From positions 1-32,542 of the forward strand of contig JBAZGZ010000001.1 of NCBI GenBank assembly GCA_041652615.1: a DNA stretch of 32,542 nucleotides, given 5' to 3'. Shown here in pieces: positions 2,144-24,699 of the stretch (its first letter is position 1; every line of letters begins with the position of its first letter). Both the position numbers and the translations under genes were made by a program. The notes beneath the pieces are model-generated. The model saw only the letters and a list, made by a program, of their open reading frames with translations, was not told the origin of the DNA and did not search any database. Source of the DNA: Candidatus Omnitrophota bacterium. Lineage in GTDB: Bacteria > Omnitrophota > Gorgyraeia > Duberdicusellales > 4484-171.

Positions 2144-3484
2144 ATGCCAAACGATATTAGTTTTGCTAAAAAATCCGGAAATAATTCAAACTTTACGGCA
2201 ATAGTTCTTGCCGCGGGAAAAGGCGTAAGAATGAAATCGGAGCTGCCGAAAGTTCTTCATACGCTTTCCGGCAAACCGCTTATCGGCTATTGTTTAGAAC
2301 AGCTAAAATCCATCAAAAATATAAAACAAATAATTGTCGTAACGGGCTATGGCGCGCAGTCCGTAGAAACATATGTGAAAAATAACTTTAAAGGTGTTGA
2401 ATTTGCAAGGCAGAAAAAATTGCTTGGCACGGCAGACGCGGTTAAGTGCGCAAGAGCAGAAGTAAAATACGAAAATGTTTTAATCCTTTGTGCTGACGCG
2501 CCGCTGATTACGGCTGAAACGTTATCTTCCTTTATGGCTTCTTACGAAAGCGAAAAACTGACAGCTTCAATTATTACCGCGTATATTGATAAAAAAAATG
2601 ACCTGGGGAGGATTATCAGGGATACTTACGGCGCGATTAAATCTATATGCGAAGTCAGTGATTTGCGTAAACATATTAATCTAAAAATCAGCCTAAAAGA
2701 AGTTAACAGCGGTATCTATGCGTTTAATCGCAGAACGCTTTTTGAAAATCTTAAATATATAAAGAGAAACGAGATTAAAGGTGAATATTATTTTACCGAT
2801 ACGATAGAGATTCTTTATAATAACGGTATCAAAATAGGCTCTTATGTGCTTTCTGACAGTGATGAAATCTTAGGTATAAACAGTCCGAGAGAGCTTTCTT
2901 TGGCGGAGAGAATAATCAATAAAAGGGTGGTAGAGTATTTTATGGCAAGCGGGGTGAGAATAATGGATCCCCAAAGCACCTTTATCGCCGAGAACGTAAA
3001 GATTGGTAAAAATACCTTAATTTATCCCTTTACCTTTATAGAAAGGAATGTTATAATTGGCGTCCGTTGCGAAATCGGCCCTTTCGCGCATTTAAGGCAA
3101 GGGGTTTGCATATCCGACGATACAGCAATAGGTAATTTTACGGAAATCAGCCGTTCCAAAGTTGGAAAAAACACTAGAATTAAACAGTTTAGCTATATTG
3201 GCGATGCTACTATCGGCGATAACGTAAATATAGGCGCGGGTACAGTTGTAGCTAATTATAACGGTAAAACCAAAAATAAAACTATTATAGAAAAAGGAGC
3301 ATCCATTGGTTCGGATTCTGTTTTGGTTGCTCCGGTTAAAATCGGAAAATCTGCCATAACGGGCGCAGGCAGCGTTGTTCTTAAGAATGTTAAAGGCGGG
3401 GAAACAGTTGTAGGTGTGCCCGCTCAGGTATTAAAGAAAAATCGGAAGCTCGAAGGAAGAAAGACGAGAGACGAAGGACGATAG
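2144..3484 (+). CDS. glmU: Bifunctional GlcNAc-1-P uridyltransferase / GlcN-1-P acetyltransferase
   Basis: N-terminal LAAGKGVRMKS nucleotidyltransferase motif and a C-terminal left-handed beta-helix of hexapeptide repeats. The last ~10 codons (EGRKTRDEGR) are encoded by a heptamer repeat array. Confidence 0.9.
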   Translation: MPNDISFAKKSGNNSNFTAIVLAAGKGVRMKSELPKVLHTLSGKPLIGYCLEQLKSIKNIKQIIVVTGYGAQSVETYVKNNFKGVEFARQKKLLGTADAVKCARAEVKYENVLILCADAPLITAETLSSFMASYESEKLTASIITAYIDKKNDLGRIIRDTYGAIKSICEVSDLRKHINLKISLKEVNSGIYAFNRRTLFENLKYIKRNEIKGEYYFTDTIEILYNNGIKIGSYVLSDSDEILGINSPRELSLAERIINKRVVEYFMASGVRIMDPQSTFIAENVKIGKNTLIYPFTFIERNVIIGVRCEIGPFAHLRQGVCISDDTAIGNFTEISRSKVGKNTRIKQFSYIGDATIGDNVNIGAGTVVANYNGKTKNKTIIEKGASIGSDSVLVAPVKIGKSAITGAGSVVLKNVKGGETVVGVPAQVLKKNRKLEGRKTRDEGR

Positions 3485-3569: not shown

Positions 3570-4517
3570 ATGGATAAAATGGTAGTTTTGAGCGGCAACT
3601 CGAATAAAGAGTTAGCTGTAAAGATAAGTAAGGAATTGAAAGTTAAGCTTGCAGAAGTAATGACAGTTCGCTTTAGTGACGGAGAAATAAGGGTAAAGGT
3701 TGAAGATAATGTAAGAGGTAAAGATGTTTTTGTTGTCCAATCTAATTGCCCGCCGGTCAATGAAAACATAATGGAGCTTTTGATAATCATCGACGCGTTA
3801 AAACGGGCCTCGGCCAATCGCATAACCGCGGTGATACCTTATTTCGGTTATGCGCGCCAGGATAGGAAAGATCAGCCGCGCGTGCCTATAACCGCGAAAC
3901 TTGTGGCAAATCTTTTAACGGTGGCGGGAGCGAATCGTGTTTTAGCTCTTGATTTGCATGCCGGCCAGATTCAAGGTTTTTTTGATATACCGGTGGATCA
4001 CTTGTTTGCGATTAATGTTTTTGTCGATTATTTTAAGAAAATTAAAATAAAAAATCTTGTTATCGTGTCGCCGGATGTTGGCGGTATAAAGATGGCGAGG
4101 GCTTATGCAAAGAAATTTCATGCCGGTTTGGCAATTGTTGATAAAAGAAGAAATACCCCCGACGCTACTGAAGTAATGCATATTCTTGGCGAAGTCGAAG
4201 GTAAAAATGTTATTCTGGTTGATGATATAGTTGCAACTGGCAGTTCACTGGTTGAGGCAGCAAAAGCGCTCAAAGAGGCGGGAGCGAAGAAAATTTTTGC
4301 CGCTATTTCTCACGGAATACTTTCTGCCAATGCAGTAGAGAAGCTGGAAAATTCAAATATAGATTATCTTGTAATTACCGATTCTATTCCTCTGGGCGAG
4401 GAAAAGAAGAGTAAAAAAATAAAAGTTGTTTCGGTGAATAAATTATTCGCGGAAGCAATCAGAAGGATACATTTTGAGCAATCAATAAGCGTGCTTTTTG
4501 ATTCAATAAGGAGATGA
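3570..4517 (+). CDS. prs: Ribose-phosphate pyrophosphokinase
   Basis: AGGAGA Shine-Dalgarno upstream of the ATG. Prs-typical motifs are present: YFGYARQDRK and the VSPDVGG / DDIVATGSS PRPP-binding loop. Confidence 0.92.
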   Translation: MDKMVVLSGNSNKELAVKISKELKVKLAEVMTVRFSDGEIRVKVEDNVRGKDVFVVQSNCPPVNENIMELLIIIDALKRASANRITAVIPYFGYARQDRKDQPRVPITAKLVANLLTVAGANRVLALDLHAGQIQGFFDIPVDHLFAINVFVDYFKKIKIKNLVIVSPDVGGIKMARAYAKKFHAGLAIVDKRRNTPDATEVMHILGEVEGKNVILVDDIVATGSSLVEAAKALKEAGAKKIFAAISHGILSANAVEKLENSNIDYLVITDSIPLGEEKKSKKIKVVSVNKLFAEAIRRIHFEQSISVLFDSIRR

Positions 4518-4690
4518 AATGAGGCAGCAACTTTTCAAGCCTCTAGTGGCGTAGAAAAGCTGCGTAGCCGAATTTCACCCAGCACTAATTTTTATATAAG
4601 CAATTTAGTGCGAGGAAAATTAGTGCTGGGTTTAATTCGCACTATCATTTTTTCTTCGCCACTAGGGCTTGAAAAAATGATGTGCTCATT
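4518..4690. repeat. Composite structured repeat, locus A: left module (-), central hairpin, right module (+)
   Basis: Left module 4518-4577. Central perfect 15-bp stem is CCCAGCACTAATTTT (4578-4592) with AAAATTAGTGCTGGG (4616-4630). Right module 4631-4690 ends at the rplY Shine-Dalgarno. Confidence 0.85.
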
Positions 4691-4702
4691 AAAGGAGATA
4701 AC

Positions 4703-5458
4703 ATGGAAAGGGTAAAGATTGAAGCGACCTTAAGGGAAAAATTAGGTAAAGAAACAGCAAAGAAAGTAAGGTTTAAGGGTAATGCTCCCGCGATAGTTTA
4801 CGGTAAGGGCGTAAACCTTGCGGTTGAGATACAGGTGGCAGGGTTAAAAGCTTTAAGAGCAATACATTTTTCACAAGGTGCGGTAATCGATATAGATTTA
4901 ACCGGCCAGGATAAGAAAGAAAATTGTTCTGTTCTGATTAAGGATGTACAGTATCATCCATTAACAGAGGCGATTACGCATATAGACTTTATAAGGGTTT
5001 CTCTTGAGGAGAAAATAAAAGCGCACGTTCCTGTCGTCCTTAAGGGCGAGCCAAAAGGCGTGAAAGAAGAAGGAATCCTTTCCCAGATACTTTGGCAGCT
5101 TACCATTGAAGCTCTTCCTCTGGATATTCCGGAAAAAATTGAAGTAGATGTTACTCATCTAGGGATAGGTAATTCTGTGCATGTTGATGAAGTTAAAGTG
5201 CCGGAAAATGTAAAAATAGTTAATTCTCCCGATGAAACTGTTGCAACGGTTGTAGAGAAAGAAGAAGAAGTCGCGGCTACTGTCGCAGATGAAACAACCC
5301 CTACGGGCCCTGAGGTAATAAAAGAGAAGAAGGAAGTTGAAGAAGGTGAGGCCGAGGGCGAAGAGGGCAAGGCGAAAGGAAAAGAAGAGCCCAAAGGTAA
5401 AGAAGAGGCTAAGCCGAAAGAAGAAGCTAAAAAGGCTCCGGAAAAAGGGAAGAAATAA
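4703..5458 (+). CDS. rplY: Ribosomal protein L25 / general stress protein Ctc, with a long K/E-rich C-terminal tail
   Basis: ATG at 4703 is preceded by AAAGGAGA (4691-4698). The listed GTG at 4682 lies inside the repeat module. The prs-ctc-pth gene order is a common bacterial arrangement. Confidence 0.85.
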   Translation: MERVKIEATLREKLGKETAKKVRFKGNAPAIVYGKGVNLAVEIQVAGLKALRAIHFSQGAVIDIDLTGQDKKENCSVLIKDVQYHPLTEAITHIDFIRVSLEEKIKAHVPVVLKGEPKGVKEEGILSQILWQLTIEALPLDIPEKIEVDVTHLGIGNSVHVDEVKVPENVKIVNSPDETVATVVEKEEEVAATVADETTPTGPEVIKEKKEVEEGEAEGEEGKAKGKEEPKGKEEAKPKEEAKKAPEKGKK

Positions 5459-5573
5459 TGAACACATCATTTTTCCAAGCCGAAGGCGTCAGGAAAAATG
5501 ATAGTGTGAATTACCCCGCCGAACGTGGCAAAATTATCGAAGAGAATTTTGCCACATTTTTAGTGAGGCGGGG
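5457..5573 (-). repeat. Structured repeat, locus B: module (- orientation) plus CCCCGCC...GGCGGGG-clamped hairpin
   Basis: Module 5457-5513 overlaps the rplY stop codon (TAATGAACAC). Clamp is CCCCGCC 5514-5520 with GGCGGGG 5567-5573. Inner perfect 11-bp stem is GTGGCAAAATT / AATTTTGCCAC with loop ATCGAAGAG. Confidence 0.85.
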
Positions 5574-5644
5574 TGATGAGATAAGCGTTACGTACGTGGC
5601 TATCGAAATAATTACAGTTAATTGAAATTCAGAACATCAAATAA

Positions 5645-6208
5645 GTGAAAGTTATAGTTGGATTAGGCAATCCGGGTTTAAAATATAAAAATAATCGCCA
5701 TAATGCCGGATTTATGGTGCTTGATGAGATAGCCAAGCACGAAAAAGTTCTTTTTAAAAAAAGTTTCCTTTGGAACTGTTACTTTGTTAAGATAACGGCC
5801 GGGCAAGAGGTAATGCTTTTAATCAAGCCTCTGACATACATGAATAATTCGGGTCGTTGCGTTAAGAAGATTTTTTCAAAGTATGTGTTGGAAGCTAAAG
5901 ATTTATTGATAGTCTATGATGACGCTGATTTGCCTCTTGGCGCGCTTAGGTTAAAAACTTGCGGTTCAAGCGGCGGCCATCAGGGGTTAGCTTCGATAAT
6001 TACCCAGTTGAATTCGCAAGATTTTCCAAGATTAAAGCTTGGGATAGATAAAAATACCGGCGCAGATTTAGCTGATTATGTTCTTTCTGATTTTTCGGCG
6101 CAAGAAAAAGAAACAATTAGTGAATCAATTGCTAAGGCTGCTAGCGCGTGCGTAGATTGGGTTAAACGCGGAAACGAATACGTAATGCAAAATTATAATA
6201 ATTGTTAA
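5645..6208 (+). CDS. pth: Peptidyl-tRNA hydrolase
   Basis: GTG start gives VKVIVGLGNPG, the canonical Pth N-terminus. The NRHNAGF motif is present. Confidence 0.9.
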   Translation: MKVIVGLGNPGLKYKNNRHNAGFMVLDEIAKHEKVLFKKSFLWNCYFVKITAGQEVMLLIKPLTYMNNSGRCVKKIFSKYVLEAKDLLIVYDDADLPLGALRLKTCGSSGGHQGLASIITQLNSQDFPRLKLGIDKNTGADLADYVLSDFSAQEKETISESIAKAASACVDWVKRGNEYVMQNYNNC

Positions 6209-6315
6209 CGCGAATAAACGCGAATTTAGACCTGAATGGTTTTATTAAAGTATAAACGCGAATGCGCGCGAATAAAAAGGTTTATAGTTTTATTTTATTC
6301 GCGCGCATTCGCGTT
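6209..6315. repeat. CGCGAAT motif array plus perfect 23-bp palindrome directly after the pth stop
   Basis: CGCGAAT occurs at 6209, 6219, 6257 and 6267 (10-nt phasing within each pair). ATTCGCG occurs at 6297 and 6307. The stem is AACGCGAATGCGCGCGAATAAAA / TTTTATTCGCGCGCATTCGCGTT. Confidence 0.8.
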
Positions 6316-6354
6316 AGATTTGCGATAATTAGCGTTATAAAAGGAGGATAAAAC

Positions 6355-6693
6355 GTGAATACGAATTTTGAAAGCATGATTATTGTGTTGCCTGATATCG
6401 GAGACCAGGCACAGGAAGAGGTTTTTCAGAAGGTAACAAAAAAAATAGAAAGTCTTGAAGGCAAAGTTACGAGCGCCAAGATTTGGGCTAAAGAAAGAAG
6501 TCTTTCCTACCCGCTGAAGGCTTCCGGTTCACAGAAGAAAAAATACTTAAAAGGATGTTATTGGCTCATTGTTTTTTCTATTGATACCGAAAAATTAGCT
6601 GATTTAAGAGAAACAATAAGGCTTGAAGAAAAAATATTGCGCAGCATTATTTTAAACAGGGAGAATTTAAAAGTCGAAAATATAGTAAGCTAA
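6355..6693 (+). CDS. rpsF: Ribosomal protein S6
   Basis: AAGGAGG Shine-Dalgarno then GTG. The rpsF-ssb-rpsR order is conserved, and the YESMIIVLPD-like N-terminus fits S6. Confidence 0.85.
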   Translation: MNTNFESMIIVLPDIGDQAQEEVFQKVTKKIESLEGKVTSAKIWAKERSLSYPLKASGSQKKKYLKGCYWLIVFSIDTEKLADLRETIRLEEKILRSIILNRENLKVENIVS

Positions 6694-6705
6694 GGCGGTG
6701 CGATT

Positions 6706-7128
6706 ATGGCGAGTTTAAATAAGGTTTTTTTGATGGGAAATTTGACGCGTGATCCGGAATTGCGATATACCCCGCAAGGCGCGGCAGTTGTAAATCTTGG
6801 TCTTGCGGTAAACAGGTATTATAAAGATAAAAGCGGCCAGAACCAGCAGGATACGTGTTTTTTAAATGTAATAGTTTGGGGTCAAATGGCTGAAGTCTGC
6901 AATCAGTATCTTCAAAAGGGAAGGCAGATTATCGTAGAGGGCAGGCTCCAATCAAGAAGTTGGAAGGATAATGATGGTAAAAACCGCACGACTATAGAAG
7001 TAAAGGCGGATAACGTCCAGTTTATGTCTAATCGTGCAAAGGAAGAAACTAAAGAAGTTGATTTAGGCGAGGCACCGGCAGAGTCGACCGGCGCGGAGCA
7101 TAATGAAGAACAAGGAGAGGTGAATTAA
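6706..7128 (+). CDS. ssb: Single-stranded DNA-binding protein
   Basis: OB-fold N-terminus (LNKVFLMGNLTRDPELRYTPQG). It sits between rpsF and rpsR. Confidence 0.9.
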   Translation: MASLNKVFLMGNLTRDPELRYTPQGAAVVNLGLAVNRYYKDKSGQNQQDTCFLNVIVWGQMAEVCNQYLQKGRQIIVEGRLQSRSWKDNDGKNRTTIEVKADNVQFMSNRAKEETKEVDLGEAPAESTGAEHNEEQGEVN

Positions 7129-7129
7129 G

Positions 7130-7393
7130 ATGTTTAAACCAAAATCAAAACCAAAACTAAAACTAAAAACAAAAACACCAAAGATGATCGGATTTAAAAA
7201 AAGCTGTTCGTTTTGCAAAAAAGAATTTAATATTGATTATAAAAATATCGAATTGCTTTCGCACTACATATCGTCAAGAGGCAAGATAGTATCCAGGCGT
7301 GTAAGTGGAAATTGCGCCAAGCATCAGCGAAAAGTTACAAAAGAGATGAAAATTGCACGGTTTTTGAGTATATTCCCGTATTTGGCTAGATAA
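7130..7393 (+). CDS. rpsR: Ribosomal protein S18 with a K/P-rich N-terminal extension
   Basis: GGAGAGG Shine-Dalgarno lies 9 nt before the ATG at 7130. The S18 core is present (CSFCKKEFNIDYKN...GKIVSRRVSGNCAKHQRKV...ARFLSIFPY). Confidence 0.85.
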   Translation: MFKPKSKPKLKLKTKTPKMIGFKKSCSFCKKEFNIDYKNIELLSHYISSRGKIVSRRVSGNCAKHQRKVTKEMKIARFLSIFPYLAR

Positions 7394-7400
7394 GATTTAT

Positions 7401-7522
7401 TACCCCGTCTCATGAAAGAGGTTGTGAAATTCTCTTCGATAATTTCACAATATTCGGCGGGGTTAATTCACACTATTATTTTTTCTGCGCCACTAGCGGC
7501 TGGAAAAAATGATGTGTTCAAT
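7401..7522 (+). repeat. Structured repeat, locus C: clamped hairpin plus module (+ orientation)
   Basis: This is the reverse-complement arrangement of locus B. Clamp is CCCCGTC 7403-7409 with GGCGGGG 7456-7462. Inner stem is TTGTGAAATT / AATTTCACAA with loop CTCTTCGAT, the reverse complement of the locus B loop. Module 7463-7522 ends at the rplI Shine-Dalgarno. Confidence 0.85.
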
Positions 7523-7538
7523 AAGGAGGTTTACTGCA

Positions 7539-7982
7539 GTGAAAGTTATTCTTTTAAAAGATATCGATAAATTAGGTAATGAAGGCAGTGTGTTGGAAGT
7601 TAAAGAAGGCTATGCGCGTAATTTCTTATTGCCGCAAAAGCTTGCCATGAAAGCAACCAAAGATAGCTTTCGTGAAATTGAAGAGATGAAAAAGAGAAAA
7701 GATAAAGTAGAGGAAAAAACAAAAAAAGAAGCTTTGGAGTTTAAGGTAAAGATAGAAGCCTTGTCGGTAACCATAACCCAGGAGGCAAAAGATACCGAAG
7801 AGATATACGGCTCAGTAGGAGAACAGCAAATTCTAAAAGCCTTGAAAGATGAAAGCGTGATCCTTGAGAAAGGTAAAATAGAAATAACTGAACCTATAAA
7901 AAAATTGGGCGTTTATAATTTAAAAGTCAGGCTTCATCCTGCTGTAGAGGCTAATCTACGCGTGTGGGTAATGAAGAAATGA
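7539..7982 (+). CDS. rplI: Ribosomal protein L9
   Basis: GTG at 7539 follows AAGGAGG (7523-7529) and gives VKVILLKDIDKLG, the canonical L9 N-terminus. The listed start at 7509 lies inside the repeat module. Confidence 0.88.
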   Translation: MKVILLKDIDKLGNEGSVLEVKEGYARNFLLPQKLAMKATKDSFREIEEMKKRKDKVEEKTKKEALEFKVKIEALSVTITQEAKDTEEIYGSVGEQQILKALKDESVILEKGKIEITEPIKKLGVYNLKVRLHPAVEANLRVWVMKK

Positions 7983-9337
7983 TTGCTACAAATACTCCTC
8001 AAATAGCAGATAAACTTCCGCCGCAAAACATTGAAGCAGAAATGGCAACGCTTGGCGCCATGCTTCTCAATGAAGCGGCCATTTCGGAAGTTATGGAAAT
8101 TGTAAATGAGGACTATTTCTATAAAGAAGAACATAGAATTATTTATTCAAGCATCATCTCGTTGTTTGACTCACGGAAAAAAATTGATATCCTTACCATC
8201 TCCGAAGATTTAAATAAAAAAAAGCTCCTCGAAAAATCCGGAGGTTCATCTTACCTGGCAACCCTTGCCGATTTCGTTCCTACCTCAGCAAACGTTTTAC
8301 ACTACGCGCGTATAGTTAAAGAGAAAGGCGTTTTGCGCCTGCTTATTAACAGCGCGACCCAAATTGTTTCTTTGGCATACAGAGGTGATGAAGAAGTCAG
8401 CACTATTCTGGATAAGGCGGAGAGGCTTATATTCGAAATAAGTGATAAAAGAATAGAGGGCGGGTATATCCATATTAAGGAAATAATAAAAGATGGCATA
8501 GAATTAATTGAATCTCTTTACCATAAGAAATCGCACATAACCGGTATCCCTACCGGTTTTACGGACTTTGATATCAAAACCGCCGGGCTTCAAAAAGGAG
8601 ATCTGATTATTGTGGCCGGTAGGCCGTCGATGGGCAAAAGCGCGTTAGCCACATCAATGGCTGAATACGCGGCAGTTGAAGAAAAAGTACCGGTTGCTTT
8701 TTTTAGCCTTGAAATGTCGAAAGAGCAGTTAATGCAGCGTTTTTTATGTTCACAAGCAAAAGTCGATATGCACAAATTAAGAACCGGTTTTTTAGCGCCT
8801 TCGGAATGGCCGATTTTGACTAGCGCGGCCGGCAGGCTTTCCGAAGCTCCGATCTTTATTGATGATACGCCGGCAATAAATATTTTTGAATTAAGAGCAA
8901 AAGCAAGGCGCCTTAAAGCGCATCATGATATACAACTTATCCTGGTTGACTACCTTCAAATGGTGCGATGTATGCGCCGGGGAGATAGCCGCCAGCAGGA
9001 GATATCTGAGATTTCCCAGGCGCTCAAAGCTTTAGCTAAAGAGCTTAGTCTCCCGGTTCTTGCGGTGAGCCAGCTATCACGTGCGGTTGAATCAAGGACT
9101 GACCATCGGCCTCAGCTTTCAGATTTAAGGGAATCGGGAGCCATAGAGCAGGATGCTGATGTGGTTGTCCTTTTGCTTAGAGAAGAATATTACAATCCAA
9201 CTCCTGAGAATAGGGGCACAGCAGAAGCGATTATCGCAAAGCAGCGCAATGGCCCTGTAGGCAGCGTAAATTTGGGGTTTATCCGTGAATATATGAAGTT
9301 TGTTAATCTCTCTAAGACTCAAGGCGAGGAGTTCTAA
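7979..9337 (+). CDS. dnaB: Replicative DNA helicase
   Basis: ATGA overlap with the rplI stop codon. N-terminal PPQNIEAEMATLGAML, Walker A GRPSMGKSA, and a RecA-like C-terminal domain. Confidence 0.92.
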   Translation: MIATNTPQIADKLPPQNIEAEMATLGAMLLNEAAISEVMEIVNEDYFYKEEHRIIYSSIISLFDSRKKIDILTISEDLNKKKLLEKSGGSSYLATLADFVPTSANVLHYARIVKEKGVLRLLINSATQIVSLAYRGDEEVSTILDKAERLIFEISDKRIEGGYIHIKEIIKDGIELIESLYHKKSHITGIPTGFTDFDIKTAGLQKGDLIIVAGRPSMGKSALATSMAEYAAVEEKVPVAFFSLEMSKEQLMQRFLCSQAKVDMHKLRTGFLAPSEWPILTSAAGRLSEAPIFIDDTPAINIFELRAKARRLKAHHDIQLILVDYLQMVRCMRRGDSRQQEISEISQALKALAKELSLPVLAVSQLSRAVESRTDHRPQLSDLRESGAIEQDADVVVLLLREEYYNPTPENRGTAEAIIAKQRNGPVGSVNLGFIREYMKFVNLSKTQGEEF

Positions 9338-9344
9338 AAATACA

Positions 9345-9383
9345 ACGCGAATGTTTACGAATTGCACACAAATATTCACAAAT
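9345..9383 (+). repeat. Phased heptamer array after the dnaB stop
   Basis: ACGCGAAT, TACGAAT, CACAAAT and CACAAAT end at 9352, 9362, 9373 and 9383, giving 10/11/10-nt phasing. No mirrored arm is present. Confidence 0.6.
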
Positions 9384-9429
9384 AAAAAGTTTGCGTAGTG
9401 GAAAGCGGGAAAATCTAAAAAAATCTTTT

Positions 9430-9612
9430 TACCCCGCCTCATAGAAGATGCTGGCTCATTGCCCCGCCTCGCAGGGGATGTCAAAAAAATCTGTTTCCCT
9501 GTAATAGGAAATTCCAGGGACTATGCCATATTTTTTTTGACGCTTGGCGGGGTTAATTCGCACTAGTATTTTTTCTTCGCCACTATTGGCTTGAAAAAAT
9601 ACTGTGCTCATT
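9430..9612 (+). repeat. Structured repeat, locus D: collapsed partial copy plus long clamped hairpin plus module (+)
   Basis: TACCCCGCCTCATAGAAGATGCTGGCTCATT (9430-9460) resembles an internally deleted unit. Clamp is CCCCGCC 9462-9468 with GGCGGGG 9546-9552. Nested stems are GTCAAAAAAAT/ATTTTTTTTGAC and TCCCTG/CAGGGA. Module 9553-9612. Confidence 0.8.
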
Positions 9613-9627
9613 AAATCTCTTATTGAG

Positions 9628-9656
9628 TTGACTTTAAATAAAAAAACCCTTATAAT
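9628..9656 (+). promoter_or_regulatory. Consensus sigma70-type promoter positioned for a leaderless bamA mRNA
   Basis: TTGACT (9628-9633), 17-nt spacer, TATAAT (9651-9656). The bamA ATG begins at 9663, 7 nt after the -10 hexamer, and there is no Shine-Dalgarno. Confidence 0.6.
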
Positions 9657-9662
9657 ATTTTA

Positions 9663-11936
9663 ATGCGAACACTAATTTCCGCTCTAACCATTTTCTTTGT
9701 ATCATTTTCCGCTCTAGCCTCAAGCGAAGATACTGTCGCGCGTATTGAAATCAAGGGCCATAAGTTTGTAAGCGACGCGACCATTGTTTCAAAAATAAAA
9801 CTTCGTTCCGGACAGACCTACAACGAGAACGTCATTAATGAAGACATAAAAAACCTTTACGCTACTGGTTTTTTTGAGACCGTTGAGGCAGCAAAAGAAA
9901 CCACGCCTGAGGGGGTAGTTGTTACTTTTAAAGTTAAAGAAAAACCCGTTCTTAAGAAGCTCGACATAGAAGGCGCTCATTTTATCCGCAAGAAAAAAAT
10001 TAGTGAAGCAATCGATATTAAAGAAGGAGCTTTTGTTGATGAGTACAAGCTGAAAGAAGTTGCCCGTAAAATAAAAGATCTTTATGCAACAAAAGGATTT
10101 AACCAGGCTAAAGTAACATACCAATTTGATATCAGCAAAGATAAGGATGAAGCTCGGGTTAAATATATTATTGAAGAAAAGGGCGTCCTTAAGGTGAGGC
10201 AGGTAAAAATTACGGGGAATAAAAGTATTTCTTCCGGCCGCATAATAAAGCTGTTAAAAACGAAAAAAGCCTGGCTTTTTAATCCAGGGCTTTTTAAGGA
10301 AGATGCTTTCAATGATGATGTTAAGAGGGTAACTGATTTTTACAGGCAAGAAGGTTTTAGTGATGTAAAAGTTGAGCCGGATTTAGTTTTTGGCGAAAAA
10401 GGGATTAATGTCAAAATAAATATTCAGGAAGGAAAGCGTTACTATATCGGTACGGTTAAAATTGAAGGCAACAAGGATGTTTCGCTTGCTGATATAACAA
10501 AGGTAATGATGCTTAAAACTAAAAGCGTGTATAGCGATCAGGCTGTTTACGAAGAGTCTTCACGAATAAGATCTGTTTACGTTGACAAGGGGTATATATT
10601 TGTACAGATTGAACCTCTGACTGTGCTTAATCCGGAAACCCAAAGTATCGACGTTACTTACAAGATAGTTGAAAATCAAGTTGCGTATATTGAACGCATA
10701 GATATTAAGGGAAATGTTAAAACAAAAGATAAAGTTATAAGAAGAGAGTTGCGTGTTTATCCGCAGGAAAAATTTGACGGAGCAAAGGTAAGAAAAAGTA
10801 AAGAGAAGCTTGAGAACCTGGGATATTTTGAAGAAGTAAGATTCGATACAGAGCCTGGCACAAAACCTGACCAGGTTGATCTTACTGTCGATGTTAAGGA
10901 AGCTAAGACCGGACATTTAAGCTTTGGCGGAGGATATAGTTCTATAGATCAATTTGTGGGATTTGTAGAGATAAGCCAGAAAAATTTCGATTATAGAAAT
11001 TTTTCAACTTTTTCGGGTGCCGGACAGGATTTAAGCCTATACGCAAGTCTTGGGACATTAACGAGTTATTACGAATTAAGTTTTACGAATCCATGGATAT
11101 TTGATAAACCATATTCTTTTGGCTTTGACGGCTACAAGAAAGGCCATAAGCAGGATGAAGATGTGGGTTACGGTTATAGCGAAGATATTGTTGGTGGGGA
11201 CTTGCGCTTGGGGCATGAGTTTAACGATGTTCTTAAGGGGCAGATCGCGTATCGTCTTGATAACGTAAAGATTACGGATGTTGTTGATAATGCTACGGCC
11301 GATCTTAAAGATGAAGTAGGTACTAATACCTTAAGCAGCGGAGAGGCTGCTCTTTTTTATGATACGCGTGATAATGTATTCTCGCCATTAAAAGGTGTGT
11401 ACTTTACTAATAATTTTCAACTTACCGGCGGCCCATTTGGCGGGACTAAAAATTTTGTAAAATATTCTACGCGATTCAGCTATTATTACCCGCTTATTAA
11501 TAAATCAGTTATAGAGCTTCGCTTAAGAGGTGGCTGGGCGGATCCGTTTTCTGATACCAATAAAGTGCCTATTTATGAAAGGTTCTTTGCCGGTGGCGCC
11601 AATTCCATAAGGGGTTACGAAGAAAGAAAAGTCGGCCCCGAAGATCCAGCTACTAATGATCCTCTTGGCGGTGAATCTATGTTTATTGCTAATATTGAAT
11701 ATACGTATCCATTGATGGATTTTTTAAAAGTAGCGACGTTTTTTGATAGTGGCGAGGTTTGGGAAAAGAATGGTGATTTTTTCAGTACTGACTTAAAAAA
11801 GAGTATCGGTCTGGGCATCAGGGTAAAAACACCGATAGGCCCTGTAAGTGTTGACTATGGCTGGCCGCTTGATTTGCTGCCCGGACAAGACAGCAAAGAA
11901 GGTCGTTTTCATTTTAACGTAAGCCGCGGATTTTAA
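9663..11936 (+). CDS. bamA: Outer membrane protein assembly factor BamA (Omp85 family)
   Basis: Signal peptide, repeated POTRA-like segments (IEIKGHKFVS, LDIEGAHFIRKKKI, VKITGNKSIS, VKIEGNKDVS, IDIKGNVKTKDKVIRREL) and a C-terminal beta-barrel ending in RGF. Confidence 0.92.
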   Translation: MRTLISALTIFFVSFSALASSEDTVARIEIKGHKFVSDATIVSKIKLRSGQTYNENVINEDIKNLYATGFFETVEAAKETTPEGVVVTFKVKEKPVLKKLDIEGAHFIRKKKISEAIDIKEGAFVDEYKLKEVARKIKDLYATKGFNQAKVTYQFDISKDKDEARVKYIIEEKGVLKVRQVKITGNKSISSGRIIKLLKTKKAWLFNPGLFKEDAFNDDVKRVTDFYRQEGFSDVKVEPDLVFGEKGINVKINIQEGKRYYIGTVKIEGNKDVSLADITKVMMLKTKSVYSDQAVYEESSRIRSVYVDKGYIFVQIEPLTVLNPETQSIDVTYKIVENQVAYIERIDIKGNVKTKDKVIRRELRVYPQEKFDGAKVRKSKEKLENLGYFEEVRFDTEPGTKPDQVDLTVDVKEAKTGHLSFGGGYSSIDQFVGFVEISQKNFDYRNFSTFSGAGQDLSLYASLGTLTSYYELSFTNPWIFDKPYSFGFDGYKKGHKQDEDVGYGYSEDIVGGDLRLGHEFNDVLKGQIAYRLDNVKITDVVDNATADLKDEVGTNTLSSGEAALFYDTRDNVFSPLKGVYFTNNFQLTGGPFGGTKNFVKYSTRFSYYYPLINKSVIELRLRGGWADPFSDTNKVPIYERFFAGGANSIRGYEERKVGPEDPATNDPLGGESMFIANIEYTYPLMDFLKVATFFDSGEVWEKNGDFFSTDLKKSIGLGIRVKTPIGPVSVDYGWPLDLLPGQDSKEGRFHFNVSRGF

Positions 11937-12019
11937 TGAGCGTATTATTTTTTCAAGCCTCAAGTGGCGTAGGAAAAATAATAGCGCGAATTATCCCCGA
12001 GAGTAGCGATGGGGGGGGG
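11935..12019 (-). repeat. Structured repeat, locus E: module (- orientation) plus short CCCC...G9 hairpin
   Basis: Module 11935-11994 overlaps the bamA stop codon (TAATGAGCG). Its stem sequence differs from other copies but pairing is kept (TATTATTTTT / AAAAATAATA). CCCC is at 11995-11998 and a G9 run at 12011-12019. Confidence 0.8.
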
Positions 12020-12133
12020 TAATGAATATCCAGCCAACCCTAAAGACAATCGTAAATCTGCTCATATGCATGGGTATCTTGAGCGTAAAAAGTTAAATAC
12101 GAACTACTAACGTTTATTAAAAAGGAGGAAACA

Positions 12134-12640
12134 ATGAAAAAGACAATAGTTTCGCTGGTTGCATTTTTGGTTATTTGTTCTTTTTGCTCGGTTTCTTACG
12201 CAAAAGAACTAAAGATCGGGTATCTTAATTTTTTAGAGGTTTTTAATGAATATAAAAAGACGAAAGATTATGATGAAGCTTTAAACAAAAAGACTGAAGA
12301 GAAAGAGAAGCAGCTTAAGGATAAAGGCGCAGAGCTTGAAAAAATGCAGAGCAAATTAAGTGTTTTAAAAGATAAAGAAAAAGACAAAGAACAGAAGAAA
12401 ATGGATCAAGCCGAAAAAGAGTTTCAGCAATTACGCCGGCAATCGTTGCTTGATCTTAAGAAAGAAAGAGACGAAAAGATGAAAGAAATAGTTGAAGATA
12501 TCGAAAAAACGATAAAGGATTACGCTGAAAAAAATAACTTTGATCTTATTCTTCACGGAAGCGCTGTGCTTTATGGTGCTAAGAGTATCGATATCACCGC
12601 TGACGTTCTTAAGATTGTAAACGTACATGGGAAGAAATAA
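12134..12640 (+). CDS. skp: Periplasmic chaperone Skp/OmpH
   Basis: AAAGGAGG Shine-Dalgarno, signal peptide and a K/E-rich coiled-coil body. It occupies the conserved bamA-skp-lpxD position. Confidence 0.85.
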   Translation: MKKTIVSLVAFLVICSFCSVSYAKELKIGYLNFLEVFNEYKKTKDYDEALNKKTEEKEKQLKDKGAELEKMQSKLSVLKDKEKDKEQKKMDQAEKEFQQLRRQSLLDLKKERDEKMKEIVEDIEKTIKDYAEKNNFDLILHGSAVLYGAKSIDITADVLKIVNVHGKK

Positions 12641-15246: not shown

Positions 15247-16023
15247 ATGAAAAATAAAATTGATTCAAGAGCGATTGTAAGCAAAAAAGCAGAGATCGAT
15301 AAAAATGTAACCATTGGCCCCTATGCCGTAATAGGGCCTTCTGTTAAATTGGGCTCTGGGAGCGTGATTGACGCGTTTGCGCAGGTAATCGGTAATACTA
15401 CGATAGGTAAAAATTGCCATATTTTTTCTTACGCGGTGCTAGGGAATGCTCCACAGGATTTAAAATATAAAGGAGAGCAAAGTTTTCTTGTCGTTGGCAA
15501 TAATAATATTATCCGTGAATTTGTAACTATGAATGTTGGAACAGAAGAAGGCTCTAGAACTATAGTTGGGAATAATAATCTTATTATGGCTTACTCACAT
15601 ATAGCCCATGATTGTGCTGTGGGCAGCGATAATGTTTTGGCAAATTGCGCGACATTAGCCGGTCACGTTACCATAGAAGACAGGGTAACCGTGGGTGGAA
15701 TAGTCGCGATACATCAGTTTTGTCGTTTGGGAACTCTTTCTATGATCGGGGGCTGTTCAAAAGTTGTTCAGGATGTACCTCCTTATTCTGTAAGCGATGG
15801 GCATCCGACTGTTGTCAGGGGTTTGAACCTTATAGGATTAAGACGGGCAAAGTTTCCTCAAACTACAATAAGCTTGCTAAAGAAAGTGTTCAAAATTATT
15901 TTTTTTGATAACCATCCTTTGGCAAAAGCAAAAGAGCTGATAGTTAAAGATTTTCCCGGAATACAAGAAGTCGATTATCTGCTTAAGTTTATTTCATCGT
16001 CAGAGCGCGGCATCTGTAGATAA
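15247..16023 (+). CDS. lpxA: Acyl-ACP:UDP-GlcNAc O-acyltransferase
   Basis: Hexapeptide-repeat beta-helix plus the C-terminal helical domain typical of LpxA (GLNLIGLRRAKF). Position in the lpx cluster supports the call. Confidence 0.9.
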   Translation: MKNKIDSRAIVSKKAEIDKNVTIGPYAVIGPSVKLGSGSVIDAFAQVIGNTTIGKNCHIFSYAVLGNAPQDLKYKGEQSFLVVGNNNIIREFVTMNVGTEEGSRTIVGNNNLIMAYSHIAHDCAVGSDNVLANCATLAGHVTIEDRVTVGGIVAIHQFCRLGTLSMIGGCSKVVQDVPPYSVSDGHPTVVRGLNLIGLRRAKFPQTTISLLKKVFKIIFFDNHPLAKAKELIVKDFPGIQEVDYLLKFISSSERGICR

Positions 16024-16028
16024 CGTTT

Positions 16029-16124
16029 GTATAGAAGCGGATATCCGCGGATCAAAACGCGGATAAATGCAAGCGAGTTGCTGTGCGTAAATCCGCGTAA
16101 GTATCCGCGGTAATCCGCTTCTAC
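16029..16124. repeat. Mirrored GCGGAT motif array after the lpxA stop
   Basis: GCGGAT occurs at 16037, 16047 and 16059. ATCCGC occurs at 16091, 16103 and 16113. Spacing is symmetric (10/12 and 12/10). The motifs are complementary but the spacers between them are not. Confidence 0.8.
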
Positions 16125-16153
16125 AAAATAGAGATTTACAAATATTAGCGTAT

Positions 16154-22155: not shown

Positions 22156-23409
22156 TCAATAAACGAGATTATTGATGAAACTTTTCGTGTATTTTATTTT
22201 TTCATTTTCTATAACTTTTAAGAATGCCGCGATTCTTTCTTTCGCTATTTTAGAAGGGAATATACTTTGCGGAAAATTATCTAGATAGTCCACAAAAGGA
22301 TTTGCTTGGGCAATTTTAGGGATGATTCTCTTATTTTTTATAATAAAGTCAAGGGTTTCTCTAAAATCGGCCTCGGTTTCTCCCGGGTAACCAAAAATCA
22401 GGCTTATTTCAAATTGTAAGTCAGCGCTTTTGAGAGTAGAAAGAAAATCAGCAGCAGCCTGCGCGCTAAAACCTTTATTCATGTTTTTTAAGGTCTTATC
22501 TGATGCGCTTTCGAGGCCAATAAAAAGATTATAGCAGCCGCTTTTTTGCATAATGCGGCTTAAGTTGGTATCAAAATTTTTGTCTACTCTTATTTGTGCT
22601 TCCCATTTTATATTCATATTTTTCTTTATTAGCGATGAACAGAAATCATTAAGCCAGGCGTTGTCGTAATTTATCAATGAATCAGAGAAGATAAAGCTAT
22701 TCGTATTGTGTTCTTTTTTTAGTTTGTTGATCAGTTCTATCATGTAGCCTGCGGAGTGGTGGCGCAATCCCTTGAATAGTTCTTTTTCCGCGCAGAAGTT
22801 GCAATTAAATTTACACCCTCGTGAAGAGAGAATAGGAATTGAGTTTGAATAATTTAGCATATCAAGGCAGCTAAAATCTAAAAAATCCAAGTCATCCAGA
22901 TTAGTTATCTCTTCGTGATGGTATGTTTTATTTTGTTCTCCGGAAAGAATTTTTAACAGGGGCATTTCACCCTCGCCGATTACCCAGAAATCAGTGTCGT
23001 TGAGGCATTTTTTCCATTTCATAAATAAAACCTGCGGCCCGCCGAAAATTATTTTTTTTGACGGAAATTTTTTCCTGATTTCATTTGCCAGAGAAAAAGA
23101 GAAGTCAGTATTTCGTTTAAGCAGCGAAAATCCTATATATTCATAATCTACAATGTCTTTGTAGAATGAATCAAGAAATGGCAATAAAGTTATCTTAGTC
23201 TGAGGAAAAAGGTTTTTTTCAAAATTGTCGTCTAAGGCTAACCATGTTTTTGAATTCGCCGCGTATGTTTTAAAAAGCTCATTGTTTAGATCCCTGGTTT
23301 TAACTTTTATGCTTTTACTTTTAAGGTAATTTTCAAGATAAACAAGAGAGAGCGGAGCGGTTTTGGTCCAGGATGGTGGACATTGAATGATATAGACACT
23401 TTTCTTCAT
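22156..23409 (-). CDS. B12-binding-domain radical SAM protein (class B-like)
   Basis: N-terminal Rossmann-like B12-binding-type domain, then the SSRGCKFNCNFC CX3CX2C motif. ATG at 23409 (MKKSVYIIQ) is preferred over GTG at 23430. A TATAAT on the minus strand lies at 23424-23419. Confidence 0.75.
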   Translation of the reverse strand: MKKSVYIIQCPPSWTKTAPLSLVYLENYLKSKSIKVKTRDLNNELFKTYAANSKTWLALDDNFEKNLFPQTKITLLPFLDSFYKDIVDYEYIGFSLLKRNTDFSFSLANEIRKKFPSKKIIFGGPQVLFMKWKKCLNDTDFWVIGEGEMPLLKILSGEQNKTYHHEEITNLDDLDFLDFSCLDMLNYSNSIPILSSRGCKFNCNFCAEKELFKGLRHHSAGYMIELINKLKKEHNTNSFIFSDSLINYDNAWLNDFCSSLIKKNMNIKWEAQIRVDKNFDTNLSRIMQKSGCYNLFIGLESASDKTLKNMNKGFSAQAAADFLSTLKSADLQFEISLIFGYPGETEADFRETLDFIIKNKRIIPKIAQANPFVDYLDNFPQSIFPSKIAKERIAAFLKVIENEKIKYTKSFINNLVY

Positions 23410-23435
23410 TGTAATATAATTATAACACACACGGA

Positions 23436-23567
23436 GGAAAAGTAGAGAGTAGAGGGTAGAAAGTAGAGAGATAGAAATAGCCAGAGATTTTAAAAATTTA
23501 AAATCTTTAGCTAGAATGATAATGTTAATTCTTCCTCTCTACCCTCTACTTTCTACTCTCTACTTCT
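23436..23567. repeat. 7-nt tandem repeat palindrome in the divergent promoter region
   Basis: Left arm: AGTAGAG AGTAGAG GGTAGAA AGTAGAG AGATAGA. Right arm: CTCTCTACCCTCTACTTTCTACTCTCTACTTCT. The centre holds the palindrome AGATTTTAAAAATTTAAAATCT. Confidence 0.8.
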
Positions 23568-23577: not shown

Positions 23578-24699
23578 ATGAATTCGCTATATATCCACAT
23601 CCCATTTTGCGCTAAAAAATGCCTTTATTGCGATTTTTATAGTATCGGCCATGACGAGAAACTTGCTTCAAAATTCATTGATATTTTATCTGCTCAAGCC
23701 ATGACTCTAAAAATACAGTTTGATACCATTTATATTGGCGGCGGTACACCTTCCGTTCTTGAGTCGCGATTGCTTGAGAAGTTGCTAAAAAGCCTAAAAG
23801 CCGCCGCTTGCAATGTTAAGGAGTTTACCATTGAGGCGAACCCGGAAAGCATTACCGCTAAAAAATTGAAATTATTTTTAAACTACGGAATTAACCGTAT
23901 CAGCATAGGCGTCCAGTCGTTTGATGATAAAAAATTAGCTAAATTAGGCAGGATTCATTCCGGGCAAAAAGCTATTGAAGCTGTAAACTTGGCTAAGCAT
24001 AGCGGGTTTAAAAATATCAGTATCGATTTGATCTTTGGAGTTTGGCAGGAAACCTTAGGTGCGTGGAAAGAGGAGCTCAAAGCAGCGATGGAATTGCCCT
24101 TAAAACATATTTCCTGCTATTCGCTTAGCTATGAAAAACATGCCAAGCTTTCTGCTCTGCTTAAGGAAAAAAGTATAATTCCTCAAAGCGATGAGGTAAC
24201 GGTTAAAATGTATGAGCACGCTATTGATTATCTTGGAAAAAATAAATTCTTTCACTATGAAATTTCAAATTTTTCAAAAGCCGGTTTCCAGTGTAAGCAT
24301 AATCTGAATTATTGGCAAAATAATTCTTATGTGGGATTGGGTCCTTCGGCTGTGTCGTACAGGGAAGGTAAAAGAGCGAAAAATATCTCGGACGGTAAAA
24401 AATATATTGAACTGGCGGGTAAGGGTAAGTCTACTGTAGTTTTTAATGAAAAACTTTCGCTCGAAATGCAGGCAAAAGAAACCGCTGCTATAAAAATTCG
24501 TACTACGGAAGGCATTGATTTTGACTGGTTTAAAAAAAGAACCGGATTTGATTTTTTGAAATTAGAGAGCGATGACATTGACTTTCTGATCAAACAAAGG
24601 CTTTTGAAATATAAAAAATCAAGATCAAAGGAATCGGGGATCGCGCTGACAAGAAAAGGTTTTTTATTCTGCGATTCTGTTTCCGCGCAATTGTTGTAA
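23578..24699 (+). CDS. hemW: Radical SAM heme chaperone / oxygen-independent coproporphyrinogen oxidase-like protein
   Basis: LYIHIPFCAKKCLYCDF CX3CX2C motif close to the N-terminus. GGGTPS motif and HemN family length. Confidence 0.85.
   Translation: MNSLYIHIPFCAKKCLYCDFYSIGHDEKLASKFIDILSAQAMTLKIQFDTIYIGGGTPSVLESRLLEKLLKSLKAAACNVKEFTIEANPESITAKKLKLFLNYGINRISIGVQSFDDKKLAKLGRIHSGQKAIEAVNLAKHSGFKNISIDLIFGVWQETLGAWKEELKAAMELPLKHISCYSLSYEKHAKLSALLKEKSIIPQSDEVTVKMYEHAIDYLGKNKFFHYEISNFSKAGFQCKHNLNYWQNNSYVGLGPSAVSYREGKRAKNISDGKKYIELAGKGKSTVVFNEKLSLEMQAKETAAIKIRTTEGIDFDWFKKRTGFDFLKLESDDIDFLIKQRLLKYKKSRSKESGIALTRKGFLFCDSVSAQLL

Follow-up and report, generated by a model that had tools for sequence, protein, structure and literature searches.

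A probable MITE/BOX-like family of modular stem-loop repeats at gene boundaries in a clade of Candidatus Omnitrophota

Two intergenic loci of a Candidatus Omnitrophota bacterium, one after rplY (locus B) and one before rplI (locus C), are confirmed to be genuine opposite-orientation copies of a non-coding, two-hairpin unit of ~125 nt. They belong to a large, previously undescribed repeat family. Close relatives differ in which of their orthologous intergenic sites hold a copy, and ~8-bp target-site duplications flank some recent insertions. The family probably represents modular, non-autonomous stem-loop repeats of the MITE/BOX-like kind, present in a clade of Candidatus Omnitrophota. This kind of element is familiar; the exception is the end hairpin, which is flush with start signals or stop codons. 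The Omnitrophota are an uncultured and poorly understood phylum, and the literature searched holds no description of an interspersed repeat family in them and no paper that links them with such repeats.

Inverted copies at rplY and rplI

The window, which is the whole stretch of 32,542 nucleotides that was analysed, was originally predicted to carry a segment, 5457-5573, whose reverse complement matches 7401-7522 along its whole length. The two were compared by local alignment and by MAFFT. The local alignment runs nearly end to end, with identities at 96 of 114 ungapped columns (84%), and its score of 69 is far above chance, as dinucleotide shuffles give a mean of 9.9 (sd 1.7, maximum 18, n=1000). 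On the non-complemented strand the score is only 18. The shared parts that had been listed are all present, i.e. the edge ACCCCG(C/T)CTCA in both copies, the identical loop CTCTTCGAT, the stretch TTCGGCGGGGT(T)AATTCACACTAT and the terminal module; the inner stems differ, as had been said, and remain fully paired in both (Table 1). The predicted coordinates were nearly right and needed slight trimming, to 5455-5574 (minus strand) for B and 7402-7524 (plus strand) for C.

The gene context also holds, with B starting at the rplY stop codon, module first, and C ending at the rplI Shine-Dalgarno sequence, module last. B had further been placed at the end of one transcription unit and C in the leader of another. 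B does lie at a gene 3' end and C just upstream of a gene. No promoter or terminator, however, is predicted at either locus, and both are therefore probably intercistronic.

Does the unit stand by itself? The combination of GC-clamped hairpin H, whose inner stem varies, and terminal hairpin M recurs at least 26 times elsewhere (26-28 units) with the same boundaries and a length of 125-131 nt, in agreement with the proposal of a discrete element that can sit in either orientation. The name 'half element' fits less well. The full elements at loci A and F do have M too, but they carry a distinct L-type module and other central hairpins; H+M is thus a recurrent unit in its own right rather than a broken half.

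Table 1. Positions of the repeat loci in the window and of their parts
Feature	Positions	Strand	Basis
Locus B, terminal hairpin M (R-type)	5455-5512	-	covariance-model match 5455-5521 (-), 71 bits; nhmmer; fold
Locus B, rplY stop TAA, overlapped by outer end of M, TAATGAACAC	5456-5458		
Locus B, GC-clamped hairpin H, ACCCCGCC...GGCGGGGT; inner stem TGTGGCAAAATT/AATTTTGCCACA, loop ATCGAAGAG	5513-5574	-	sequence; fold; H+M alignment pair counts
Unique 65-70 nt spacer, B to pth start	5575-5644	+	blastn-short
Locus C, hairpin H, ACCCCGTC...GGCGGGGT; inner stem GTTGTGAAATT/AATTTCACAA, loop CTCTTCGAT	7402-7463	+	sequence; fold; alignment; pair counts
Locus C, terminal hairpin M (R-type)	7464-7524	+	covariance-model match 7456-7524 (+), 75.7 bits; nhmmer; fold
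Locus C, rplI Shine-Dalgarno AAGGAGG, flush with outer end of M, GTGTTCAATAA; start GTG at 7539	7523-7529		
Locus A, full element	4516-4691	+	nhmmer; covariance-model matches
Locus A, L-type M	4516-4583	-	
Locus A, central hairpin			
Locus A, R-type M	4625-4692	+	
Locus A, flanking 8-bp direct repeat AAGGAGAT	4508-4515 and 4692-4699		
Locus D, composite H (nested second H-type hairpin) and R-type M	9430-9613	+	covariance model
Locus D, flanks AATCTTTT and AATCTCTT	9422-9429 and 9614-9621		
Locus E, R-type M and small CCCC...GGGG hairpin	11933-12020	-	covariance model
Locus E, bamA stop codon TAA, flush with M	11934-11936		
Locus F, full element: L-type M (-), central hairpin CCCCCACACCAATTG.../...CAATTGGTGTGGGGG, R-type M flush with AAAGGAGG of next ORF	24722-24894	+	covariance model
		

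Two further constructs at locus B were set aside. The 65-nt tail (5578-5644) was considered as an additional module and rejected, as blastn-short places it only in the window and in the sister metagenome-assembled genome (MAG), L001; the spacer 5575-5644 is conserved in that MAG alone and is absent in the next relative, L109. A 55-codon open reading frame that runs through B, starting at an ATG that overlaps the rplY stop, is judged fortuitous because the corresponding frame is not conserved in other copies.

A dispersed and polymorphic family of paired hairpins

Across 6 intergenic loci the window contains 8 M hairpins in all. A strict-pattern search matches 95 further metagenome stretches, and 692 kb of related sequence hold 144 M matches, 108 of them R-type and 22 L-type. 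Whole units measure 66-185 nt and single modules 57-68 nt; M itself is ~66 nt and polar. The arrangements seen are solo M, H+M, and L-type M followed by a central hairpin and R-type M. Small size (<~500 bp), lack of coding function, many dispersed copies and presence/absence polymorphism at orthologous sites are all as in MITEs. At locus F, the L end is immediately preceded by a TATAAT box.

Compensatory changes maintain the hairpins of the family. Of the cells in the H+M alignment 98.3% are paired, and double-sided changes occur in 26 of 43 pairs, values reached by none of 500 shuffles; slid controls give ~44% pairing. An alignment of 82 M copies has 94.4% of cells paired, with double changes in 16 of 22 pairs. 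G.U pairs make up ~1% of cells in the H+M alignment, and their rarity fits maintenance of a palindrome at the DNA level at least as well as selection on RNA. Minimum free energy folds are 4.5-9.4 sd below shuffles and leave the rplI Shine-Dalgarno sequence unpaired.

The syntenic block prs-rplY-pth-rpsF-ssb-rpsR-rplI-dnaB-bamA-ompH was compared among relatives. The window and L001 carry B and C, which L109, L003, L110 and L112 lack; L109 has an rplY stop that overlaps the start of pth, and an rpsR|rplI spacer of 47 nt. A, D and E are confined to the window among the syntenic relatives. The site of A is empty in L001, L002, L004, L110 and L112, that of D reads AAAAAAATCTTTTATTCAATTGAC in L002 (similar in L001 and L109), and the spacer of E is empty in L001, L002 and L111. 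Relatives have copies of their own, e.g. a different M subtype at rpsR|rplI in L111, and an opposite-orientation M at dnaB|bamA with an extra copy at pth|rpsF in L002. In total 7 M copies are found in 221 kb of relatives vs. the 8 in the 32.5-kb window. Module number varies as well: one orthologous site has a solo M in L034 and a full element in L089, and at another L096 has one module more than L040. The comparison of orthologous intergenic regions that had been proposed therefore reveals insertion polymorphism and, together with the 8-bp duplications at A and D, supports a mobile or mobile-derived repeat.

Mobility and known repeat systems

Target-site duplications, which had also been proposed as a check on B and C, are seen at sister loci: AAGGAGAT at A (8/8) and AATCTTTT/AATCTCTT at D (7/8), both of 8 bp, and TGGAGGTC/TGGAGGTT in L028 (7/8). 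None is clean at B or C themselves, and a scan of 28 H+M units at all boundary offsets gives background identity and no consistent duplication. In the full elements, at loci A and F, the L end shows 74% complementarity to the R end over 61 nt. No terminal inverted repeat is present in the H+M unit of loci B, C and D (TACCCCGCC vs. TAATGAGCAC).

How might such units move? As non-autonomous elements, they would be mobilised in trans by a putative enzyme that makes staggered cuts. No autonomous element or transposase with matching ends was found in the ~760 kb of Omnitrophota sequence examined, inverted M-like termini 0.5-3.5 kb apart comprise only the B-C pair and chance pairs, and clustering of all open reading frames of these loci returns only orthologous housekeeping sets, with no multi-copy transposase-like protein. 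An origin from IS1, suggested by a resemblance of TAATGA to IS1 ends, was rejected since scores against IS1A of E. coli K-12 equal those of shuffles. A TTAA/TA target duplication in the style of piggyBac or IS630 would fit the consensus TTAA at both M ends, but it does not fit locus A, the ends of B and C read ...TTCA+TTAT and ...TTCA+ATAA, and it is therefore unsupported. Searches by blastn of C against plasmids and of A against phages, and of the M pattern against viral contigs, gave no match, and exact-protein look-ups for L9 and S18 returned no record.

A parallel is offered by the BOX element of Streptococcus pneumoniae, boxA-boxB(n)-boxC, described with RUP and SPRITE (Croucher et al. 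2011, PMC3049150). Pneumococcal repeats are enriched between convergent genes (PMC3049150), whereas the Omnitrophota elements are not (2 of 73 clusters, equal to baseline). Both families are small (typically <200 bp), non-coding, multi-copy and modular, with end modules, a variable or optional middle and lone modules. BOX elements form stem-loops on transcription and are co-transcribed with neighbour genes, and the Omnitrophota elements, whose folds are stable, would do likewise; both are limited to narrow clades and vary in module number at orthologous sites. BOX elements have inverted-repeat ends and target-site duplications, and here such ends are seen in the full elements A and F and duplications at A, D and L028. 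The likeness is of architecture only, without homology to BOX: there is no sequence similarity and the host phylum differs. Each Omnitrophota module is its own long hairpin, whereas in BOX, A pairs with C, and the Omnitrophota terminal hairpin differs in being flush with a Shine-Dalgarno sequence or stop codon.

Correia/NEMIS elements of Neisseria and ERIC/IRU of Enterobacteria are palindromic MITEs that are co-transcribed with genes, and their RNA hairpins undergo processing or affect how stable the mRNA is. They resemble the present family as imperfect palindromes of 100-170 bp that lie in transcribed intergenic regions in both orientations and show presence/absence polymorphism. Correia elements duplicate TA, however, vs. 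~8 bp here. Correia and ERIC elements form a single long hairpin from two ends, whereas the Omnitrophota elements are chains of separate hairpins and H+M is without inverted ends. The two groups show no similarity in sequence, and for the present family no parent insertion sequence is known.

Could the hairpins instead be spread, like REP/BIME or REPIN sequences, by an HUH tyrosine transposase (RAYT or IS200/IS605 type) that recognises them as single-stranded DNA and needs no classical inverted ends? Like REPs, the units are palindromic, occur as singlets and doublets and in alternating-orientation mosaics that recall BIMEs, show compensatory stem changes, and are found at gene 3' ends and between cistrons. 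On both strands nearly all pairs are Watson-Crick and G.U pairs are very few, H+M is devoid of terminal inverted repeats, and in ~40-60% of units (C)TCATTA stands both immediately to the left of H and where M ends on the right, much like the cleavage motifs that IS200/IS605 elements have in the flanking target and at their right end. Yet REPs are 20-40 nt, far shorter than modules of 57-68 nt, and carry a conserved 5' tetranucleotide; there is no conserved GTAG-type 5' motif here. HUH single-strand transposition leaves no target-site duplication, as opposed to the ~8 bp at A, D and L028, and no RAYT or other Y1 transposase gene was found in the loci examined, a limited sample. Spread by such an enzyme is therefore unlikely.

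An immobile cis-acting RNA, i.e. a ribosomal-protein leader, attenuator, terminator or processing signal selected at these genes, would explain the strong covariation, the conserved unpaired loop nucleotides and the precise register of M beside the Shine-Dalgarno sequence. Promoters lie directly upstream of some units, which makes these 5' UTRs, and in start contexts G.T mismatches on the sense strand outnumber A.C (43 vs. 18). The bias does not flip in stop contexts (16:9, Fisher p=0.61). An intrinsic terminator at B or C was rejected since neither hairpin runs into a U-tract; the sequence that comes next is AATTACCCC, GATGAGAT, TTAATTC or TTCAATAAGG. Rfam covariance models give no match over the whole window at gathering score, and at E<=1 over 4400-12200 nothing at B or C, with generic hairpin/miRNA-like noise elsewhere in the window. 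A gene-specific leader is contradicted by the occurrence of the unit in both orientations relative to transcription (~55:45), next to many unrelated genes, and by its absence at these sites in close relatives, although the genes are retained there. These observations make a conserved cis-acting RNA quite improbable. Even less can be said for a local event, whereby B and C would owe their similarity to duplication/inversion or gene conversion across pth-rpsF-ssb-rpsR and not to a dispersed family. No inverted M pair other than B and C is spaced ~2 kb apart, the terminal 16-mers of these two match at 15 of 16 positions, their H hairpins differ by only 2 nt in L001, and in each genome the two have a common genome-specific loop variant. 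But they are not mutual nearest relatives, as metagenomic copies from unrelated loci are closer (82-87%); more than 100 other copies lie in other contexts, the 8 M copies of the window contradict B and C as sole copies, and the gene order from B to C is unchanged in relatives without both. Gene conversion may homogenise copies, but it leaves their origin unexplained. A local event is thus highly improbable as the source of the similarity, and a dispersed MITE/BOX-like family is the preferred reading.

Register with start and stop signals

The outer end of M directly adjoins either the Shine-Dalgarno sequence of the gene that follows or the stop codon of the one before. A start codon follows 6-15 nt past the M end in 45-54 copies, under a classifier that allows up to ~42 nt, and 21 of 28 open reading frames that converge on the element stop exactly at the TAA of TTAATGAG, the element's own TAA. 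Is this register a matter of target choice or of selection? Random insertion does not account for so exact a fit. Selection does so in part, as the duplicated 8 bp at A and L028 include the Shine-Dalgarno sequence; elements might persist where the neighbour's stop codon and ribosome-binding site stay intact.

Element clusters lie between co-directional genes in 67 of 73 cases, and the copies would therefore be co-transcribed; between the cistrons their RNA may fold into very stable hairpins. By analogy with BOX, ERIC, Correia and REP sequences, such hairpins probably alter mRNA stability, processing or translation. A more specific idea, tentative and rather doubtful, is a gene-boundary-homing element that places M in register with the Shine-Dalgarno sequence or stop codon, the hairpin chain being a portable intercistronic RNA cassette. 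In such a cassette, the hairpin that follows the stop codon would act as a 3' stabiliser, the central one would serve in processing, and a 5' hairpin would precede the ribosome-binding site.

The operons concerned are essential ones (ribosomal proteins, dnaB, bamA), and the fate of their mRNAs is likely affected by very stable hairpins at cistron boundaries. Copies also mark lineage-specific insertion events and can be used for strain typing. With six loci in 32.5 kb the family is dense in this genome, and it disrupts or misleads both assembly and gene calling: spurious upstream starts of rplY and rplI fall inside the element, and pth is 10 residues longer in one relative.

Loci B and C and their repeat family

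Aligned against 7401-7522, the reverse complement of 5457-5573 matches along nearly all of its length (96 identities in 114 ungapped columns, local score 69; the pair was also viewed as a MAFFT alignment). Dinucleotide-preserving shuffles (n = 1000) gave a mean of 9.9, a standard deviation of 1.7 and a maximum of 18, the score also of the non-complemented strand. By this measure loci B and C, two of six intergenic repeat loci in the window, represent the same unit in opposite orientations, as the original prediction held, and all the features it named are found in 5200-7800. In B, placed after rplY, the conserved module comes first and begins at the rplY stop codon; in C, placed before rplI, it comes last and ends at the rplI Shine-Dalgarno sequence. 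The neighbouring genes are backed by Pfam: L25/Ctc (true start ATG 4703, end 5458), Pth (5645-6208), S18 (7130-7393) and L9 (true start GTG 7539).

Two parts of the earlier interpretation need amending; the remainder is supported. Positions at a gene end and a gene start are as described, but predictions place neither a promoter nor a terminator at either locus, so the two are probably intercistronic, and roles at transcription unit boundaries are at most putative. The label 'half element' is only partly apt, as the two-hairpin unit itself recurs.

Intergenic repeat loci of the window (M, polar terminal hairpin of ~66 nt, R-type or L-type; H, GC-clamped hairpin; full, L-type M, central hairpin and R-type M)
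Locus	Position	Setting	Architecture	Strand
A	4516-4691	prs/rplY	full	
B	5455-5574	rplY/pth	M + H	minus
C	7402-7524	rpsR/rplI	H + M	plus
D	9430-9613	dnaB/bamA	composite H + M	
E	11933-~12020	bamA/ompH	M + small hairpin	minus
F	24722-24894	upstream of 175-aa ORF	full	

The window (38.7% GC), assigned to Candidatus Omnitrophota by the relatives of its BamA, carries exactly eight M hairpins, all at these loci. A strict M pattern, with two stem positions per arm left free, matched 95 stretches across several JGI metagenomes and had no match among viral contigs; a profile search over 692 kb of related loci found 144 M copies (134 unique; 108 R-type, 22 L-type). Three architectures recur: solo M, H+M (26-28 copies of 125-131 nt with a common left boundary) and full elements, whose module composition is the same in every case (n = 24). 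Longer chains and nested forms are also present, locus D being one. In four full elements a TATAAT box precedes the L end by 0-3 nt (window 24713-24726 and the related loci L064, L065 and L098), and in L098 a TTGACA box lies at 15 nt from it; the whole three-hairpin element would there serve as the downstream gene's 5' UTR.

Gene callers can be misled by M repeats: the ORFs called mechanically for rplY (GTG 4682) and rplI (ATG 7509) begin within an M hairpin (4682-4702 and 7509-7538), and the real starts come after the Shine-Dalgarno sequence. A 55-codon ORF at 5457-5624 (MNTSFFQAEGVRKND...ITVN*), from an ATG overlapping the rplY stop (TAATG), spans the whole of locus B; equivalent frames are short or absent in other copies, so it is probably fortuitous. 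L25/Ctc itself has a Glu/Lys-rich low-complexity C-terminal tail of ~65 residues past the TL5 domains (5260-5455).

Hairpin structure and conserved pairing

B and C each fold as two adjacent hairpins, as RNA or single-stranded DNA (z = -4.3 to -9.4 relative to shuffles). H consists of a GC clamp (ACCCCGCC/GGCGGGGT), an asymmetric internal loop whose 5' side is CTCACAGAAGAGG and whose 3' side is CGTTC, an inner stem that is AT-rich and variable, and the conserved loop ATTCTCT(A/T)CGATAAT. From its base, the M stem runs through the closing TTAAT/ATTAA, GCAC/GTGC, a T bulge and A-NN-ATTTTTTC/GAAAAAAT-NN-T, in which the two NN stay complementary despite being hypervariable, to a small variable stem at the apex. 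The hairpin is polar, as a covariance model gives 61-90 bits to true copies and only 22-26 bits to reverse strands.

In an alignment of 26 H+M sequences, standard pairs occupy 98.3% of cells and double-sided changes occur at 26 of 43 pairs, values not reached in any of 500 shuffles; slid partners pair in only ~44%. For M (82 copies) the figures are 94.4% and 16 of 22 pairs. Is the pairing maintained at the RNA or the DNA level? Selection on RNA was assessed by asking, for each transcription context, whether G.T exceeds A.C on the transcribed strand. The ratio is 43:18 in start contexts and 16:9 in stop contexts, with no reversal (Fisher p = 0.61), and G.U pairs are scarce (~1% of cells). Because the bias is not reversed and G.U is rare, RNA-level selection and DNA-level palindrome maintenance are not separated. 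Template switching, in which one arm is copied from the other, would also exchange one Watson-Crick pair for another with no G.U intermediate.

Insertion polymorphism, age and register with genes

Thirteen related loci from MAGs or metagenomes (designated by L numbers) keep the gene order prs-rplY-pth-rpsF-ssb-rpsR-rplI-dnaB-bamA-ompH. The window and the MAG locus L001 are sisters by nucleotide identity (dnaB 86.7%), with L109 (83%) and L002 (81%) outside. Comparison of relatives revealed the predicted presence/absence differences at B and C. Site B is occupied in the window and L001 and by a different M variant in L002; L004, L110, L112 and L109 have an empty site, and in L109 the stop of rplY and the start of pth overlap (GAAGTAGTGAAGG). 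Site C is likewise filled in the window and L001, and in L111 an M of another subtype likewise abuts the Shine-Dalgarno sequence; L109, L002, L003, L110 and L112 have an empty spacer of 44-47 nt. Sites A and E are occupied in the window only; at A the relatives read ...AATAAGGAGATAACATGG, with the prs stop directly before the rplY start. Site D carries H+M in plus orientation in the window and M in minus orientation, flush with the dnaB stop, in L002, and is empty in other relatives. The pth/rpsF site is occupied in L002 only, by an M flush with the rpsF Shine-Dalgarno. Overall, there are seven M copies in 221 kb of relatives versus eight in the 32.5-kb window. Modules vary as well: one orthologous site has a solo M in L034 and a full element in L089, and L096 has an extra 77-nt module between M end and Shine-Dalgarno relative to L040. 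In L002 (6790-6925), pth lacks its normal stop and continues for 10 extra codons into a small hairpin + M element, where the TAG at the inner end of the element terminates it; insertion of repeats can thus remodel protein C-termini here.

Target-site duplications, also sought on the original prediction, are found at some loci, with none clean at B or C. Comparison of empty and filled sites shows AAGGAGAT on both flanks of A (8/8). Locus D is flanked by AATCTTTT/AATCTCTT (7/8), which indicates that the H+M type inserts as a unit, and the full element of L028 by TGGAGGTC/TGGAGGTT. A scan of 28 H+M units detected no general duplication. The lack of a clean one at B and C is consistent with their age, as both predate the split of the window and L001, whose orthologous copies are only 76% identical for C and 63-88% for parts of B. 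The L001 copies of B and C (1196-1262 and 2975-3035) have H hairpins that differ by 2 nt, with the common loop TTCTTTGA; B and C of the window both carry a CTCTTCGA loop and have otherwise diverged. A genome-specific loop variant common to two inverted copies 1.9 kb apart suggests gene conversion or genome-specific master copies.

Of 73 classifiable element clusters, 67 sit between co-directional genes, which equals the local baseline. The start codon lies 6-15 nt past the M end in 45-54 copies (mode 10; the classifier accepted distances up to ~42 nt), and the junction reads CTCATTAA/GGAGG. In 28 copies an ORF converges on the element, and 21 of these ORFs stop precisely at the TAA within the terminus TTAATGAG; several other copies adjoin the T-run of the converging gene's terminator. 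Did this register arise by selection or by choice of target? Selection in very compact operons can explain it in part. The duplicated 8 bp at A and L028 include the Shine-Dalgarno, and the left copy would keep the last codons of the upstream gene and the right copy the ribosome-binding site. Selection falls short, however, for two independent insertions in the ~45-nt rpsR/rplI spacer, each of which abuts the Shine-Dalgarno; the alternative there is a target preference.

Relation to known repeats, and other signals

What are these sequences? No Rfam family matches the repeat units, and annotated plasmids and phages have no similarity to them. Intrinsic terminators were ruled out, as no U-tract follows the hairpins; a gene-specific leader, by the occurrence of both orientations, the unrelated neighbouring genes and the absence in close relatives. 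Resemblance to IS1 ends is no greater than chance, so derivation from these was also rejected. A mobile or mobile-derived modular repeat family is the reading we favour with fair confidence. A staggered-cut transposase as mobilising enzyme is a much more tentative proposal, drawn only from the 8-bp duplications, and the Omnitrophota loci examined contain no autonomous element or multi-copy protein. Any host function is likewise less certain than mobility.

The closest analogue in architecture and behaviour is pneumococcal BOX, which is built of A-B(n)-C modules that also occur singly, has inverted ends and target-site duplications, forms stem-loops as RNA, is co-transcribed, is confined to a narrow clade and can have different numbers of modules at orthologous sites (PMC3049150). 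Other traits are in common with the palindromic MITEs Correia and ERIC and with REP/BIME/REPIN. The repeats here differ in several respects: every module is its own long hairpin, H+M lacks inverted ends and yet is duplication-flanked at D, there is no enrichment between convergent genes, and M abuts Shine-Dalgarno sequences or stop codons directly. A literature search located no paper describing interspersed repeats in Omnitrophota, and the main survey of the phylum does not mention palindromic repeats or hairpins. We file the repeats as a new family of small non-autonomous interspersed stem-loop elements, a kind already known: well supported, from an uncultured phylum, and odd in its register with Shine-Dalgarno and stop codons, but not a new kind of system.

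Other signals were noted. The bamA promoter is near consensus (9628-9665, TTGACT-17-TATAAT, 11/12); the ATG at 9663 follows the end of the -10 box by 6 nt, with no Shine-Dalgarno, so the mRNA is probably leaderless, and the arrangement is kept in L001, L002, L003 and L109-L112. The window pth/rpsF spacer (6209-6354, 146 nt; 23-39 nt in relatives) has direct repeats of ACGCGAAT, present again at ~9345, and a palindrome with ~23-nt arms (AACGCGAATGCGCGCGAATAAAA/TTTTATTCGCGCGCATTCGCGTT), and seems to be a further lineage-specific insertion, by a repeat of another kind. A long imperfect palindrome at 16012-16143 (60-nt arms, 72% complementary, ATCCGCGGAT/GCGGATA motifs), in the spacer before an ORF at 16154, is a candidate for another intergenic hairpin family. 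A purine-rich AGTAGAGAG-type repeat with 40-nt inverted arms (83% complementary) occupies 23440-23565, between divergent genes at 22156-23430 (minus) and 23578-24699 (plus). Finally, a different palindrome of ~60 nt, TCCGCCAAAATC...GGCGGA, lies within the M end, between GTGCT and CATT, in L056 (4668-4729) and L098 (~1225-1290); missing from the orthologous M copies in L016 and L019, and with no duplication, it is a second tiny element that targets M.
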